Shown here: piece after piece, positions 2,382 to 42,270 of the stretch
Layout of the letters: each line of letters begins with the position of its first letter
How positions within the stretch are numbered: position 1 is the first letter of the stretch
Sequence record: NC_025430.1
From: Escherichia phage vB_EcoM-ep3
DNA: 42,351 nucleotides
Direction: 5' to 3' (one strand)
The notes under the pieces: model-generated
Told to the model about the DNA's origin: nothing
Database searches by the model: none
Seen by the model: only the letters and a program-made list of their open reading frames with translations
Position numbers and translations under genes: made by a program

Positions 2382-3524
2382 TTAAGCCGCACCAACCAGG
2401 TGGGCGTTTTTGTTGGCGTGCCACGCTGGCAGGCTGATGGTCTGGATTTTATCGCCGTATCCAGGCCAAACACCTGTGCGCACGCATTCAGCGTAGACAC
2501 GCAAATCATGCTGGTATTGTGCGCGGCCAATTTCTACGCCTTCGCTATCCAGTACATAAACACCAACTGCGTAAGGCGGTTTTTTCTCAACGGCGATAAA
2601 CGCAAAGTGTTTAGGATAACCACGCCAGAAATCAGGGCGGCAGCGGCACAGAACACCGGTCACCGGATCAGTCCAGTAAACTGATAATTCTGCTTTGCCT
2701 TCGTGCGGAGGCGTGCACTTGCCCTGTTCCAGAGCCAGACGCGTGCCGTCCATGTAGTATGCGTGTTGCACGTCATAGCGCCAGTTGGCGATTGATTTTG
2801 CGAACCCTTCCGGGCTGGCATCTTCGGTGGTTTTCAAGTCACCAATGATGTCTTTGACGTGGTGCAGGATAGCGAACGCTGCCGGATGATTCATTACCGC
2901 GTCACGCATGGCAAAAATTTGTTCAAACGCTTCCGGTGATAGCACTTTGCGTTCGCTGTTATTGCGCTGCCATTCTTCCAGCACATCTGACCACAGTGTG
3001 ACTTCAACGCCGTTGGCGCGCAGCAGGTTGGCCAGCTCATGACGGCTGCCGCTGGTGGATAGTTTGCCAGGACGGTCAATATTCAACTGGTTGATGATTT
3101 CTTTCAGGTCTGGCGCTTTCATCGCGTTAAGCTGTTCAGTAGTCCAGGTTTCAACAGGCTGGTTTTCCAGGATGCGTTCAACCAGTTCGCCTTTGTTGCC
3201 ACCAGTCAGCAGCTTAGGCAGGCGGCCTTCGTTCAGCTTGTTGACCATTTCCACCAGCACTTCACGGTCATCAATAGCATCAGGCACATCAGGACGGCGC
3301 AGCGCCAGGCAATAGGTTTTTGCGAATTCTTCCGGTTCAAGAATTGCCATATGCACAGCCGTGCCGATTTCCTGCGCTGGTGTTGGCGTGCGGTCATTAG
3401 CAGCAGTCACAACAGCGTTGTAGTGCATCGGGCTGCGGTGCACCAAATCCAGGCCAGATTTACTGATGCCTGGTCCGCCGTGGTATTCAGCGTTGGGAAT
3501 ACCTTCGTAAACTCCTGGTTTCAT
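2382..3524 (-). CDS. PD-(D/E)XK (Cas4/RecB-like) exonuclease
   Basis: Motifs IIGDLKTTED and QHAYY, with N-terminus MKPGVYEGIPNAEYHG. The start is placed at ATG 3524, 7 nt after a GAGG RBS. The ORF-track start at 3539 lacks an RBS. Confidence 0.7.
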   Translation of the reverse strand: MKPGVYEGIPNAEYHGGPGISKSGLDLVHRSPMHYNAVVTAANDRTPTPAQEIGTAVHMAILEPEEFAKTYCLALRRPDVPDAIDDREVLVEMVNKLNEGRLPKLLTGGNKGELVERILENQPVETWTTEQLNAMKAPDLKEIINQLNIDRPGKLSTSGSRHELANLLRANGVEVTLWSDVLEEWQRNNSERKVLSPEAFEQIFAMRDAVMNHPAAFAILHHVKDIIGDLKTTEDASPEGFAKSIANWRYDVQHAYYMDGTRLALEQGKCTPPHEGKAELSVYWTDPVTGVLCRCRPDFWRGYPKHFAFIAVEKKPPYAVGVYVLDSEGVEIGRAQYQHDLRVYAECVRTGVWPGYGDKIQTISLPAWHANKNAHLVGAA

Positions 3525-3797: not shown

Positions 3798-5216
3798 ATG
3801 GGCGTAATACTTAGGGACTATCAATCCGACATTATCAATAAGGCGCGCCTTTCTATGCGGCGCAACCGCCGCGTGTTATTGCAGGCACCAACAGGCGCGG
3901 GCAAAACTGCGCTGGCGTCATACATGGCTGGGGAAACATCGGCCAAAGGCCAGCAGGTGTGGTTTATTTGCCACCGCGCTGAACTGGTATTACAGACCAG
4001 TTTGACATTCAGGAAGTTCGGCATTGACCACGGCTTTATTGCCGCAGGCTATCCCATGAACCTGCGCGCCGGGGTGCAGGTGTGCAGCATCGACACCCTG
4101 AAAAACCGCCTGCACACCCTGCCAGCTCCTAAGCTGGCCATCATGGACGAAGCGCACCACTGTGGCGCGGCTGGATGGGCGCGCGTCAACGCCTGGCTGT
4201 TCGAGAATGGCGCGTATGTAATCGGCCTGTCAGCCACGCCAAAGCGCCTGGACGGCACCGGCCTGGATGACCACTTTGATGACATCGTGTTGGGGCCATC
4301 GGTGCGCTGGCTGATGGATAACGGCCACCTGTCTGATTATCGCATGTTCTGCCCGGACATCCCTGACATGAAGGGTGTACGCAAACAGATGGGCGATTTC
4401 TCAAAAGGAGAAACCGCCGAGAAGATGGATAAGCCGAAACTAACCGGCAACATCATCAGCCACTGGCTGAAATACGCCAGGGGCATGAAAACGGTTGGCT
4501 TTGCGGTCAACATCGCGCACAGCCGCCACTTAACGCAGGCATTCATTGATTCAGGCATCCGCGCCGCGCACCTGGATGGCGGCACCGATAAGGCGGAACG
4601 CAAGCGCATCATTCAGGACTATGCCAACGACAACCTGGATGTGATTTTCAACGTGTCGCTGTTCGGTGAAGGTTTCGACCTGTCAGCTATCGCACAGACT
4701 GACGTGACGATTGACTGCCTGATTGACGCGCAGCCCACACAATCATTGTCGCTGGTTTTGCAGAAAGATGGCCGCGTGTTGCGACCGTCCAAAGGCAAAA
4801 CCGCCATCATCCTGGACCACGCAGGCAATGCGCTGCGTCATGGCTTCCCTGACGATGAACGGGAATGGTCACTGGCTGGCGATGATAGCGGCAGCAAATC
4901 CAGCAGTGCTGGTGGTCCACCGCCGCCAGTCATCTGCAAAGGCTGTTTCAACGCCATCCGCCGACCACTGCCGCCGAAGTGCCCGCACTGCCAGAAGGAA
5001 CTACAGGCCGAAGCCAAAGAAATTGAAGTGGCAGAAGGAGAACTGCGCGAAATGGACGAACGCGCCAAAGAAAGCCTGCGCGCCAAGATGAGGCGCGAGG
5101 AGGACGCTTGCAAGGATATTGGCGCACTTACTGCCCTGGCGATGAAACGCGGGCTGCCGAACCCATCAGGGTGGGCCATAGCGAAGATGGGTGGAAGAAG
5201 ATTTAAGCGCAAATAG
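3798..5216 (+). CDS. Superfamily-2 DEAD/DEAH-box DNA helicase with C-terminal zinc ribbon
   Basis: 472 aa. Motif I APTGAGKT, motif II MDEAHH, motif III SATP, motif VI QKDGRVLR, and C-terminal CKGC...CPHC. Confidence 0.85.
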   Translation: MGVILRDYQSDIINKARLSMRRNRRVLLQAPTGAGKTALASYMAGETSAKGQQVWFICHRAELVLQTSLTFRKFGIDHGFIAAGYPMNLRAGVQVCSIDTLKNRLHTLPAPKLAIMDEAHHCGAAGWARVNAWLFENGAYVIGLSATPKRLDGTGLDDHFDDIVLGPSVRWLMDNGHLSDYRMFCPDIPDMKGVRKQMGDFSKGETAEKMDKPKLTGNIISHWLKYARGMKTVGFAVNIAHSRHLTQAFIDSGIRAAHLDGGTDKAERKRIIQDYANDNLDVIFNVSLFGEGFDLSAIAQTDVTIDCLIDAQPTQSLSLVLQKDGRVLRPSKGKTAIILDHAGNALRHGFPDDEREWSLAGDDSGSKSSSAGGPPPPVICKGCFNAIRRPLPPKCPHCQKELQAEAKEIEVAEGELREMDERAKESLRAKMRREEDACKDIGALTALAMKRGLPNPSGWAIAKMGGRRFKRK

Positions 5217-13164: not shown

Positions 13165-13188
13165 TTTATGAGCGACTCAATAAAAAAG

Positions 13189-13448
13189 TTGGTCACCGTA
13201 GTCACCTGGTAGTCACCGCTTAAACCAATGATATATATACGAAATGACCAAGTGACCAAGGGAGACAAGGAAATAAAAGATTTTAAAAGGTGACAAAAGC
13301 ATTGAGCGCATTAGTACCTAACAGCAACTTTATGAAAACATGGTCGAGTTGGTCACCAAGCCCATAAAAACGGCGCTTTTTCCTTAAAAATCAAGGTGAC
13401 CGAGAAAAACACCGCTTGTCTCCCTGTAGTCACCTATTTCTGGTCACC
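13189..13448. repeat. Iteron-like cluster of GGTNACC / GTCACC cores with A/T tracts
   Basis: GGTNACC at 13191, 13351, 13395 and 13442. GTAGTCACC at 13198, 13209 and 13426. Tandem TGACCAAG at 13245 and 13253. GGTGAC at 13289. Flanking inverted repeat GGGAGACAAG (13260-13269) / CTTGTCTCCC (13415-13424). Confidence 0.8.
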
Positions 13449-13469
13449 GTTCATCTTTTCGGCTACAAT
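13441..13469 (+). promoter_or_regulatory. Candidate promoter reading into the Mor-like/lysis genes
   Basis: TGGTCA (13441-13446, overlapping the last iteron), 17-nt spacer, TACAAT (13464-13469). Confidence 0.5.
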
Positions 13470-39364: not shown

Positions 39365-40240
39365 ATGGCTACTATCGGGCAACTGTATAAATCAAAACAA
39401 ACCGCAGCAACGCCGCGCAAGGTGTTTTGGGTGCCGCTGGCTGAACTGTATGTGGAAGATGGCTACAACATCCGCGACGTGGACCAGGCGCACGTTGAAG
39501 AATTCCGCGATGCGTACCTGGCCGGTGAATATGTGCCGCCGCTGACCGTGGAAGTGACGCAGCAGGGCATCAAGGTGATTGATGGCCACCACCGCTTTGC
39601 CGGTGCAAAGATGGCCGCAGAAACCGGCCTGGAACTGCGCCTGGAAGTGAACGACATCACCGGCACCAGTGAGGCTGACAAAATCGCGCTGATGGTCACC
39701 AGCAGCCAGGGCAAGCCGCTGGAACCGCTGGAACGCGCCAAAGCCTATTCGCGCCTGAAAGCGCAGGGCTGGACCAATGACGAGATAGCCAAGAAGGTGA
39801 AGCGCAGCCCGTCAGACGTGGCCAACATGCTGGCCCTGGCTGAATGCCCGGAACCCATCAAAGACATGGTGCGCGGTGGCCAGATGTCCTACGTGACCGC
39901 CACCGAACTGACCCGCCAGCACGGCACCGAAGCCGAAGCCGTGGCCGCACAGGCGCTGGAAGAAGCCAAAGCCGCTGGCAAGGATAAAGTAACAAAGAAA
40001 TTCACCGAACCGAAGGCACCAAAAGCGCCGAAGGCCAAGCCGGAAGCAATCCAGCCACCGTTCGGCAAAGACAAGCTGACGCGCCTGGCTGACCTGGCCG
40101 TGCAAATCGAACTGGTCCACAGCGATGAACGCCTGGAAGATGCCGAGCCTGACGAATCCATGACCCTGCGCGCACCTGCTGGCGTGGTGCGTGAATTCAT
40201 GGCGCTGGTGGCTGACTACGTGGGCGGGGTGCCGGAATGA
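39365..40240 (+). CDS. ParB N-terminal (ParB/sulfiredoxin-like nuclease) domain protein
   Basis: 291 aa. VPLAELYVEDGYNIRD...VIDGHHRFAGAKMA is the ParB-N motif. A central HTH-like region (TNDEIAKKVKRSPSDVANMLAL) is followed by a Lys/Pro/Ala-rich linker. Confidence 0.75.
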   Translation: MATIGQLYKSKQTAATPRKVFWVPLAELYVEDGYNIRDVDQAHVEEFRDAYLAGEYVPPLTVEVTQQGIKVIDGHHRFAGAKMAAETGLELRLEVNDITGTSEADKIALMVTSSQGKPLEPLERAKAYSRLKAQGWTNDEIAKKVKRSPSDVANMLALAECPEPIKDMVRGGQMSYVTATELTRQHGTEAEAVAAQALEEAKAAGKDKVTKKFTEPKAPKAPKAKPEAIQPPFGKDKLTRLADLAVQIELVHSDERLEDAEPDESMTLRAPAGVVREFMALVADYVGGVPE

Positions 40241-40788: not shown

Positions 40789-40968
40789 GTGGAAGAAATA
40801 GAATACGTTGTAACACTGAAAATGGAAGATGGCGCGATGTATGAGGCTTTACGCGCCACCGCAACCAAAGATGGTGATCTATCTGTGCAGGCACCAGACC
40901 AGGAAGCCCTACTGGCAGTCCTGGATAAGATGCAGGAAATGATAGATTATATCCGTGAAAACATGTAA
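40789..40968 (+). CDS. Hypothetical accessory protein (59 aa, below the ORF-track cutoff)
   Basis: GTG start 5 nt after AAGGGG, in a junction nearly identical to the previous one. The product is VEEIEYVVTLKMEDGAMYEALRATATKDGDLSVQAPDQEALLAVLDKMQEMIDYIRENM. Confidence 0.5.
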   Translation: MEEIEYVVTLKMEDGAMYEALRATATKDGDLSVQAPDQEALLAVLDKMQEMIDYIRENM

Positions 40969-40974
40969 CACACA

Positions 40975-41000
40975 GCCCGCCTCTTCGGCGGGCTTTTTGT
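40975..41000 (+). terminator. Rho-independent terminator ending the rightward late/accessory genes
   Basis: GCCCGCC-TCTTC-GGCGGGC followed by TTTTTGTT. Confidence 0.8.
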
Positions 41001-41031
41001 TGGTGGCGACCCAGGAAGGAATCGAACCTGT
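41001..41031 (-). other. tRNA 3'-end fragment (T-loop, acceptor strand, CCA); not an intact tRNA
   Basis: Minus strand reads CAGGTTCGATTCCTTCCTGGGTCGCCACCA. The T-loop GGTTCGATTCC and the terminal CCA are present, but no matching 5' acceptor strand, D arm or anticodon arm lies upstream. Confidence 0.6.
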
Positions 41032-41563
41032 AACATACAGCTTATACTACCTGCCGCAGACGCGCGAGGCGATGAATAAATGGGAAATATTGTTGCGAAA
41101 TGCACTTGCGTGATATAGGATTAAATTGTCAGTTGTAGAGATTCACGCTGTCGAGAGATACACGATGACCGCCGTGAAAGGACGGCACACAACAGGTAAG
41201 AGCATTGAACCCGTAGACCTCGCGGATTTGGTGAAAGGTGCCGCGCATTGCTCTTTCCGTTGTGGTGAATGCGCAGGCTGATGCGCGACCAATGTATAAA
41301 CAGCGCTCATGGCAAGCAGTAACCAATCTGCGCCTCAAGACAGCGTCACTGGTAGTGCGGGCGCTCTAACCAGTAAGCCGGAGTTCAGCACCGGCCACCA
41401 CAACACGCGCCGTGATGCGCTTTTGCGAACACTTCCAACCACCAGGGTGTTACCTCGCAACGTGAAAGCGCATCGCAGTGCGACATTCGCACAGACTGGA
41501 ACTTACCAGACTAGTGATTCCAATAAGGCAGGTGATCTGTATCTCGCATCACAGCGTCACGTG

Positions 41564-41595
41564 ACACAAAACCCCGCTTAGGCGGGGTTTTTCTT
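41564..41595. terminator. Bidirectional rho-independent terminator (ends sprT-like gene on the - strand)
   Basis: A-rich run, then ACCCCGC-TTAG-GCGGGGT, then TTTTTC. The hairpin is flanked by an A-tract and a T-tract. Confidence 0.75.
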
Positions 41596-41598
41596 TGG

Positions 41599-42270
41599 TC
41601 ATTCGTCATCGCCTTCCGGAGTCATCGCGCCATGTTCCGGGCAGTGAGGCGGCCCGACCTCCAACCATTTTTGCGTTACCCGAACCGTGTAGCCGCATTC
41701 CTGGCATTCGCATTTTTTCAGCCTGGTGGTTTGCTTAGGCTTCGCCGTGGACGCACCGCCGACCGGTGCCACTTCGATTTCCTCCCCTTCATCATCGTCA
41801 CCGCCTTCATCCAGGCCGATGCGCAGGCGTGGCACTTTTATGGATATGCCACGGTCAAACGTCAGCTTGGCGTGCGGCATGGGGCCAAGTTCGTCCAGGA
41901 ACGGTTTGACGTACTCTTTGAATTTCTCGCCAGGCGTGGTGGCGGTCATCGGTCCATTCAGGCCAACAGCCTTGCACACAGTGGCAAACGCGCCCTTGTG
42001 GCCACAGTCAAAACCAACGGTGGCGTGCGTCAGTTCGTGCCACAGGTGGTTTGCGACCAGGTACGGTTCCACCTGGTCTGGCATGATGAATATTTCAAAG
42101 GTGTTGTCTGCACTGCACTTGCTGTGCCAGCACTGTGCCGCCGTACTGGACCGCGCGCCGCTGCTGCAAAAGCCAACTGACACCCGGAATTTTGGCATTT
42201 CATAGCCGAATTCTTTAAAACGCGGCGCAAACTTCGCCGCCAAAGCATTTAACCAACCTTCACGGTCCAT
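41599..42270 (-). CDS. SprT-like zinc metalloprotease-domain protein with C-terminal zinc ribbon
   Basis: 223 aa. HExxH motif (LWHELTHATV), an acidic linker (GGDDDEGEE) and C-terminal CECQECGYTVRV...HCPEHG. The RBS is GAGAGGA. Confidence 0.7.
   Translation of the reverse strand: MDREGWLNALAAKFAPRFKEFGYEMPKFRVSVGFCSSGARSSTAAQCWHSKCSADNTFEIFIMPDQVEPYLVANHLWHELTHATVGFDCGHKGAFATVCKAVGLNGPMTATTPGEKFKEYVKPFLDELGPMPHAKLTFDRGISIKVPRLRIGLDEGGDDDEGEEIEVAPVGGASTAKPKQTTRLKKCECQECGYTVRVTQKWLEVGPPHCPEHGAMTPEGDDE

Follow-up and report, generated by a model that had tools for sequence, protein, structure and literature searches.

A comparison with related phages shows that the gene-poor gap at about 41032-41598 of Escherichia phage vB_EcoM-ep3 (record NC_025430.1; the window, meaning the whole stretch of 42,351 nucleotides (nt) analysed here) has two adjacent parts, a decayed integration module at 41004-41113 and an inserted structured RNA element, supported by covariation, at 41187-41404. 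A first-pass annotation of this DNA had offered a structured non-coding RNA or a decayed integration module as alternatives; both hold, each for its own part of the gap. We judge it very probable that the element functions as a structured RNA. The fuller reading, in which the gap is a composite of a dead integration module and an inserted phage RNA that is shaped like a tRNA and acts in trans, is the one that we favour with some reserve. The element as matched in full by our covariance model (R1) and the hairpin before it are laid out as follows.

41171-41186, plus strand: hairpin P0, GCCGU-GAAAGG-ACGGC, abutting the 5′ end of the element.
41187-41404, plus strand: structured RNA element, full match of covariance model R1, 218 nt.
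41188-41193, plus strand: 5′ CACAAC, alternative partner of GUUGUG 41259-41264.
41195-41258, plus strand: domain 1, a 13-base-pair (bp) helix Pa (41195-41207 with 41246-41258) that closes variable region V1 (41208-41245).
41259-41267, plus strand: 5′ strand of the closing helix Pc, GUUGUGGUG, whose partner is 41396-41404.
41271-41286, plus strand: 'D-like' hairpin Pd, GCGCA-GGCUGA-UGCGC, with covariation.
41287-41376, plus strand: variable region V2, with an ACUGGU...ACCAGU hairpin at 41348-41374.
41377-41395, plus strand: 'T-like' hairpin Pt, GCCGG-AGUUCAGCA-CCGGC, with covariation.
41396-41404, plus strand: 3′ strand of Pc, CACCACAAC, with covariation.

The aligned members of the family follow a common plan, the 5′ part of which comprises hairpin P0, CACAAC, AGGUAAGAGCAUUG, V1 and CAGUGCUCUUUCC, and the 3′ part GUUGUGGUG, AAU, the hairpin GCGCA-GGCUGA-UGCGC, V2, AA, the hairpin GCCGG-AGAUCAGCA-CCGGC and the final strand of Pc. 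P0 keeps its position, its five base pairs and a purine-rich loop through many different stem sequences, and in members that lack it a terminator or the 3′ end of a tRNA fills the same spot. Domain 2 is a junction closed by Pc that holds Pd, the hypervariable arm V2 (about 20 to 150 nt across the family) and Pt, which stacks directly on Pc. The loop sequences GCUGA of Pd (41277-41281) and UCAGC of Pt (41385-41389) are complementary and can form a loop-loop kiss, which by analogy would stand like a replacement of the tRNA elbow; one member, locus L041, has a canonical T-arm in the Pt position.

Part of this structure had been glimpsed from the single sequence. The hairpins noted at 41171-41186 (GCCGT-GAAAGG-ACGGC), 41221-41245 (CGCGG...CCGCG), 41348-41374 (ACTGGT-N15-ACCAGT) and 41377-41395 (GCCGG-N9-CCGGC) are all present, and four of the hairpins of the first-pass annotation prove to be helices of a strongly covarying family. 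The nested stem proposed between GAGCATTG (41200-41207) and CATTGCTC (41246-41253) is also there, with one mismatch in its pairing. The heptamer GTGAAAG does occur at 41174, 41231 and 41462 as described, and a functional role for it found no support.

The structure rests on comparative evidence. A two-block pattern scan of IMG/VR gave at least 120 loci and from these 93 distinct elements of 145-303 nt. In a first set (52 distinct sequences) pairing holds in 93.9% of cells and double changes occur at 14 pairs; shuffled alignments give 4.7±1.5 (0 of 500 as high) and slid controls 4-7. The second set (n=43 sequences) was built by running R1 on loci from a pattern that leaves domain 1 unconstrained, and here double changes are seen in 20 of the 32 pairs; the shuffles give 8.8±1.9, again with 0 of 500 as high. 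With no shuffle as high and the slid controls 2-4 times lower, compensatory base changes stand above the controls. They occur in 11 of the 13 pairs of Pa (second set), in all five pairs of Pd and in three stem pairs of Pt (both first set). Pc is paired in 93-95% of cells, with G-C to A-U and other double changes, and phage ECO1230-10 carries a compensated version of it, GUGGUU/AACCAC. The Pd and Pt loops change jointly in loci L073 and L048, where GUCGA is found with UCGAC. At one position of Pa the commonest pair is U.G, and G.U pairs are frequent throughout the element; since these would be mismatches on the minus strand, the structure belongs to the RNA of the plus strand. The 5′ CACAAC can pair with GUUGUG in an alternative fold, and 24 of 24 variant cells (52 sequences) still do so through G.U. 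In the window copy this alternative fold, at -93.9 kcal/mol, is isoenergetic with the comparative one, at -93.7 kcal/mol.

Against these data, the view that the hairpins arose by chance in a decayed gene or spacer and form no functional RNA is scarcely tenable, and for 41187-41404 we regard it as refuted. It draws on the folding z-scores (-0.83 on the plus strand, -1.01 on the minus strand), by which the single sequence folds no better than its shuffles, and on the fact that part of the gap is gene debris. Because the z-scores are unremarkable, hairpin richness alone does not go beyond chance and the case depends on comparison; covariation far above shuffled and slid controls, and an architecture conserved in hundreds of homologues from unrelated phages, speak decisively against accident.

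The window phage is a Jilinvirus (Iiscvirinae), with its right half 96% identical to vB_EcoM_ECOO78 over 87%. Its gap lies between a plus-strand operon (a ParB-like gene at 39365-40240, then three small genes) and a convergent gene at 41599-42270 on the minus strand. Outside the RNA element and P0 the features of the gap are these.

40974-41002, plus strand: intrinsic terminator closing the ParB-side operon, with a hairpin at 40974-40994 (8-pair stem) and then the T-run TTTTTGTT.
41004-41045, minus strand: tRNA-Arg 3′ remnant of about 41 nt, with anticodon-loop end, variable loop, T-arm, acceptor 3′ strand and CCA.
41046-41113, plus strand: tyrosine integrase pseudogene remnant, the last 21 codons and stop, found by tblastn with the HeidiAbel integrase.
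41114-41170, plus strand: spacer that matches ECOO78 only and may carry a weak promoter.
41405-41567, plus strand: Jilinvirus backbone that follows the integrase gene where relatives keep it intact, near-invariant in six Jilinviruses.
41568-41595, both strands: bidirectional intrinsic terminator, a 10-pair stem (41568-41591) with T-runs on either side.

The two terminators between which the first-pass annotation had placed the gap are thus confirmed, the first with its T-run after 40974-40994 and the second, at 41568-41591, readable on both strands. The former is also kept in phages HeidiAbel, ECOO78, Arya and ECO1230-10, and the latter is common to the gap and the convergent gene.

The decayed module is recognised by comparison with relatives that keep it. 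In the same slot HeidiAbel_Bas97 carries a tRNA-Arg gene on the minus strand and a 403-amino-acid tyrosine integrase with Phage_integrase and Arm-DNA-bind_3 domains, and in PT1 an integrase open reading frame (ORF) of 1212 nt is likewise intact at the matching position. The sequence at 41004-41045 aligns to the 3′ half of the annotated tRNA-Arg in HeidiAbel (L001, 1479-1552) and in Arya and, judging from this alignment, is the leftover of an attP-bearing tRNA copy; a tRNA-derived attP core is found beside int at the position that it has in these two relatives, by synteny. The suggestion that a translated search might reveal a decayed gene was borne out: with the HeidiAbel integrase as tblastn query, 41048-41110 is 86% identical to its residues 383-403, and no further integrase match exists anywhere in the window. 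Only these residues are present in place of an intact integrase ORF with its catalytic domain, and ARAGORN detects no complete tRNA or tmRNA in the window.

Local alignments show how the module was lost. The segment 40965-41044 corresponds to the HeidiAbel terminator and tRNA 3′ half, and 41046-41118 matches the final 68 nt of the HeidiAbel integrase gene, so that the two remnants stand just 1 nt apart where HeidiAbel has 1484 bp more. The deletion runs from the tRNA anticodon loop to about integrase codon 382; with 382 of the 403 codons and the tRNA 5′ half gone, the module cannot function. The window, ECOO78 and ECO1230-10 have an identical junction, from which we conclude that their sub-lineage inherited the deletion from its ancestor; in Arya the deletion is another one and smaller. 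Compared with the tRNA/integrase attP modules of other Jilinviruses (HeidiAbel, PT1), whose slot likewise has the ParB-side operon on one side and the convergent gene on the other, the window retains only the tRNA-Arg 3′ half and the integrase C-terminus. An ancestor held a tRNA-Arg copy (attP) and a tyrosine integrase here, as HeidiAbel and PT1 do today, and the lineage of the window phage has lost its integrase. The junction (41040-41050; also in L002 and L176) falls in the anticodon loop at a short TT(A/T)GA microhomology, and it could be the outcome of an aberrant integrase-mediated event.

At this same site the RNA element is either present or cleanly absent. In HeidiAbel, Arya and PT1 there is no element, and the sequence just after the integrase stop runs from GCCGGAGACGUAACCGGCAC straight into GCACCGUGAUGCGC. 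At that point the window, ECOO78 and ECO1230-10 each have their own insert variant of about 160-220 nt, after which all three resume with ACGC(A/G)CCGUGAUGCGC; comparison of filled and empty sites leaves a 2-nt AC ambiguity at the junction. The element, as these alignments indicate, is a horizontally acquired insert after the integrase remnant and not a product of local decay. We also observe that hairpins of the form GCCGG-AnnCGUAA-CCGGC-AC precede elements and true tRNA genes (L160, 6265-6285; L176, about 1296-1316), and that one such hairpin remains at the 'empty' site of HeidiAbel (L001, about 3095-3115); this hairpin may mark the border of a cassette or serve in processing.

The insert is itself a mosaic. 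Across positions 41183-41272, V1 included, it shares 96.7% identity with intergenic DNA of Salmonella phage SeSz-2, and across 41266-41397, which comprise V2 and the flanking conserved core, 97.7% with phage IME10; the latter type also occurs in Stx2c phages and, in no case annotated, in 190 of 5426 complete E. coli genomes. Since its two segments match different types, the window copy is a recombinant of an SeSz-2-type and an IME10-type element with its crossover in the conserved core. Copies spread and reshuffle through recombination inside this ultra-conserved core, for which a part as a hotspot of the recombination behind phage mosaicism is plausible. With an R1 score of 96.8 bits (E about 1e-18), among the highest of all scored copies, the window copy is intact.

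The family extends well beyond the Jilinviruses. Copies were found in at least 120 IMG/VR contigs and about 30 species genomes of Enterobacterales; the GTDB genomes with confirmed copies belong nearly all to this order, including Klebsiella, Citrobacter, Kosakonia, Erwinia, Pantoea, Rahnella and Rouxiella; phage carriers include HK620, CUS-3, HK629, T1-like phages and Ackermannviridae. Over 100 phage records contain the core of about 40 nt (41249-41287) at 95-100% identity, with Drexler-like siphoviruses at one extreme and Ackermannviridae of 157 kb at the other. Elements of 64-74 bits also lie on contigs labelled Martelella, Geobacteraceae, Acidobacteriota and 'uncultured bacterium' (L145, L146, L149, L156); these oddly labelled carriers, metagenome-assembled genomes among them, are likely to be contamination or mis-binned enterobacterial phage DNA.

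Transfer RNA genes are frequent neighbours. ARAGORN, run on all loci, places tRNA genes within 1.5 kb of 32 of 134 elements and within 300 nt of 31 of them, and all 64 of the neighbouring tRNA genes (within 1.5 kb) are on the strand of the element, in no fewer than 10 distinct arrangements. Most often tRNA-Asn and tRNA-Thr come first and the element follows 5 nt past the CCA of tRNA-Thr, a spot which is the tRNA site of the P22-like late operon of Sf6 and phage L (PMC8022706). In lambdoid phages the element is located after pR′ and ahead of the lysis genes; many of these loci have it behind a TTGACA-17-CATAAT promoter and a short terminator, and in HK620 it lies between qut and the annotated late terminator. 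A terminator-like hairpin follows within 100 nt in 22 of 71 copies. These promoter and terminator statistics, taken from the sequences around family members, are suggestive. In Ackermannviridae the element sits inside the tRNA region, where annotations place ORFs of 30-50 amino acids. About 17 of 100 IMG/VR loci, as well as an Escherichia genome, contain co-oriented arrays of 3-4 copies with differing arms.

Two further observations concern this neighbourhood. In Klebsiella phage Magnus (L134, 1660-4880), and also in UPM 2146 (L012), about 3 kb upstream of tRNA-Met/tRNA-Arg are annotated as a dozen ORFs of 30-70 amino acids or left blank. This stretch looks like an array of structured RNAs: in Magnus, copies of the element (2393-2747, 3886-4004) are accompanied there by a domain-1-like hairpin (4283-4366) and a match to the Rfam family STnc100 (4069-4283). 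In L056 (2236-2365, minus strand) the Rfam tRNA model aligns end-to-end over 130 nt with 44 bits, directly upstream of an element, and this could be a tRNA with a large insertion.

We propose a mechanism to which we give slightly less than even confidence. The element would be transcribed on the plus strand, together with tRNAs or from a late promoter, and tRNA-type processing would release it as a stable RNA. Its near-invariant core would dock a conserved host factor in trans as a tRNA does, the whole serving as a tRNA-like scaffold, and the specificity of a copy would come from its variable arms, V1 and V2. A role in trans is favoured over one in cis because the Jilinvirus copies have no downstream gene, the copies of an array vary in their arms and the primary sequence is extremely conserved; the window element itself sits between terminators with no gene of the same strand after it.

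The same neighbourhood bears on a cis-acting role, in which RNase P or RNase E would cut a tRNA-like fold as RNA 'punctuation' or a stability element, separating tRNAs and mRNAs or protecting RNA ends, and the Jilinvirus copy would be a functionless hitchhiker. The position of elements directly after tRNAs, 5 nt from the CCA of tRNA-Thr, fits such a role, as do the lambdoid copies between pR′ and the lysis genes, the hairpin, terminator or tRNA 3′ end that always stands at the 5′ end of the element, and the terminator-like hairpins downstream of 22 of 71 copies. We nevertheless consider it unlikely: the copies in the window, ECOO78 and ECO1230-10 are followed by no gene of their own strand, differing arms within arrays of 3-4 copies are hard to explain in this way, and some 40 near-invariant nt with two elaborate domains exceed what a processing signal needs.

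Conservation of this degree could also mark selfish DNA, a mobile element or recombination linker comparable to miniature inverted-repeat transposable elements (MITEs), the IS200/IS605 type or a 'boundary sequence', whose hairpins matter as single-stranded DNA or whose sequence serves as homology patches. The clean presence or absence at one site with its AC ambiguity agrees with this, as do core segments 92-100% identical between unrelated phage families, the CACAAC repeated at both ends, the tandem copies, the exchange of V1 and V2 as modules that made the window copy a recombinant, and the placing of the CUS-3 copy between two annotated 'boundary sequences'. The element has no terminal inverted repeats and no associated transposase, however, and covariation that tolerates G.U on one strand only points to RNA, as does the compensatory change between the Pd and Pt loops, which suggests a tertiary RNA contact. 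Strict co-orientation with tRNA genes (64 of 64) is equally hard to reconcile with a DNA-level element, and recombination in the core can account for spread while an RNA function stands. We judge this explanation improbable, a little more so than punctuation. MITE and IS200/IS605-type elements as such were rejected on the absence of terminal inverted repeats and transposase, the ends being direct CACAAC repeats with the 2-nt AC ambiguity.

Several points weigh against the proposed tRNA-shaped, trans-acting RNA, in addition to the folding z-scores already given. The 5′ CACAAC and the 3′ strand of Pc compete for one partner, which makes the mature fold ambiguous, and the kissing loop is backed by conservation and by two sequences with double changes, L073 and L048, which are related to each other. 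Sampling by sequence pattern and the use of one model-fitted alignment inflate apparent conservation and pairing. Likeness to tRNA is topological only, with ARAGORN and the Rfam tRNA model RF00005 both silent on the element, which moreover ends in the Pc strand without a 3′ CCA and has a 'T' loop of 9 nt. Transcription is predicted from sequence for all copies, and for that in the window the candidate promoter is weak and lies behind a strong terminator. This promoter, TTGCGA-N17-TAGGAT, had been called weak from the outset, and indeed matches only 8 of 12 consensus positions, for which reason the promoter scan does not list it; no promoter within the spacer 41114-41170 passes that scan. The transcript of about 450 nt that it was thought to drive does not agree with an RNA element of about 218 nt. 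Finally, very high nucleotide identity among unrelated phages would equally fit a purely selfish element.

The competition between the two ends admits a bolder but doubtful reading, in which the elements are a new class of horizontally mobile, two-domain, tRNA-shaped RNAs of phage tRNA arrays and late leaders that toggle between two nearly isoenergetic folds, either the 5′ CACAAC or the 3′ CACCACAAC pairing with the same GUUGUGGUG strand, and that act through their swappable arms as programmable tRNA mimics. If this were true, they might be decoys or inhibitors of host tRNA-targeting defences or of tRNA-processing enzymes, or self-processing ribozyme-like cassettes.

Downstream of the element, the backbone at 41405-41567 is near-invariant even in Arya, which in its matched regions shares just 78.5% identity with the window. 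A small hairpin followed by U4 (41407-41424) lies in it, as do a long imperfect hairpin at about 41412-41478 and, at 41556-41565, the palindrome GTCACGTGAC; the segment could be a regulatory site or a second RNA. The first-pass annotation had connected this palindrome with iterons elsewhere in the genome; the palindrome is present, and repeated (T/A)GTCACC motifs do form an iteron region at 13187-13450, while a functional link between the two was not found. The ORFs at 41129-41338 (minus strand) and 41309-41581 (plus strand) had been dismissed as genes, and we agree: both are present, neither they nor their neighbours match Pfam, and both are chimeras of insert and phage backbone. The 86-amino-acid 'hypothetical protein' ORF of HeidiAbel (L001, 3081-3341, minus strand) has an in-frame stop in the window (41403-41621) and is truncated by the insert, and is probably not a real gene. 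The convergent gene at 41599-42270 encodes 223 amino acids with an HExxH-like motif, WHELTH, and has no Pfam match.

Comparison with catalogued RNAs suggests that the family is an apparently undescribed structured RNA of enterobacterial phages. The Rfam scan with Infernal that had been recommended gave no family match at gathering score anywhere in the window (Rfam 15); at E<=10, 40900-41700 yields only terminator look-alikes and noise, with 41187-41404 at chance level, and no covariance model of a known ribozyme, intron or riboswitch matches. No description was found in full-text searches of the literature, either by exact core sequence or as a tRNA-like phage RNA. Among individual candidates, a hammerhead ribozyme, brought to mind by CUGAUG, was rejected because this motif is a hairpin loop engaged in the kiss; HDV-like and theta ribozymes, group I introns, integron attC sites and IS200/IS605 ends have helices that do not fit and no Rfam support. 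An RNA of about 150-300 nt with strong covariation appears to have escaped annotation in model phages (HK620, CUS-3, HK629, the late leaders of Sf6-like phages), in Klebsiella and Salmonella phages of therapeutic type and in prophages of enterobacteria, where it is present in hundreds. Its place is left empty or, as in the tRNA region of Magnus, filled with spurious tiny ORFs.

The lambdoid 'boundary sequences' (bsq) are short conserved non-coding DNA at the module junctions of mosaic phages. In CUS-3, bsq4 and bsq3 flank the element directly and neither covers it, so that the annotation 'bsq4; boundary sequence' merely abuts the element and the identification was dropped. The element differs from them in its RNA-type covariation, which a recombination linker does not need.

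With tRNA genes the element shares both genomic niches, the late leaders of Sf6 and phage L (PMC8022706), and strand. It is tRNA-like in its four-way-junction topology, in the closing 'acceptor' helix set on a 5-bp 'T' hairpin and in the loop-loop contact, and some copies carry true UUCGAAU T-arms. It is unlike tRNA in having no anticodon arm of fixed size, a closing helix of 9 bp, a Watson-Crick kiss instead of a D/T elbow, and the extra 5′ domain.

A classical analogue is provided by T4 rnaC and rnaD (species 1 and 2), stable RNAs other than tRNA that lie inside the phage tRNA cluster in the same orientation; rnaC ends in a T-arm-like hairpin. The element family shares this co-orientation with tRNA clusters (64 of 64), and the window copy itself is outside any tRNA cluster. 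Sizes and host-phage groups differ, and homology was rejected when R1, with filters off, gave at most 6 bits on the T4 tRNA region. The T4 tRNA cluster adjoins a homing endonuclease gene, as does the HK629 element (PMC2330249): an HNH gene lies beside the element in HK629 (L010, 933-1445) and a GIY-YIG gene, SegB, beside the tRNA/stable-RNA cluster in T4 (L174, 1754-2419). This suggests endonuclease-driven spread of the element and of tRNA/stable-RNA regions.

The nearest family is STnc100 (RF02076)/PasD, phage and prophage RNAs of about 200 nt that are found between Q and the lysis genes and beside tRNAs. The STnc100 consensus and PasD2 of enteropathogenic E. coli E2348/69 share the layout of domain 2, in which UGGUGAAU and a 5-bp hairpin come after the closing helix and the last hairpin directly adjoins CACCA; by inspection, both they and the element have a closing helix with UGGUG followed by AAU. 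A genuine STnc100 match stands beside element copies in the Magnus RNA array, and PasD and STnc100 are prophage small RNAs (sRNAs) between Q and the holin gene (bioRxiv 10.64898/2026.05.13.724894; PMC12370729), the same niche, PasD being Hfq-dependent on Northern blots (PMC8550237). The element might then be a divergent member, an Hfq-dependent base-pairing sRNA whose seed lies in the single-stranded stretch before the terminator at 41568-41591. We think this improbable, to about the same degree as selfish DNA. RF02076 finds nothing on the window element even at E<=10 and matches no element at gathering score in 26 other loci, and R1 gives PasD2 11.6 bits and Magnus STnc100 3.2 bits, neither significant; with layout alone in common and non-significant scores in both directions, membership was rejected. 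Unlike STnc100 and PasD, the element has an extra 5′ domain (Pa and V1), complementary GCUGA/UCAGC loops and a hypervariable arm, and it lacks a built-in tail of seed plus terminator. Copies usually have no terminator of their own; in the window the terminator is 165 nt downstream, and these 165 nt are phage backbone that is present also in relatives without the element. On sequence and layout, a distant relationship between the two, short of membership, is possible.

The tRNA-shaped RNA described here adds a module to the poorly understood RNAs that phages carry beside their tRNAs, such as T4 rnaC/rnaD and STnc100/PasD, and HK620 and Sf6, with their genetics and a defined pR′ transcript, make the role of such a tRNA-like phage RNA tractable.

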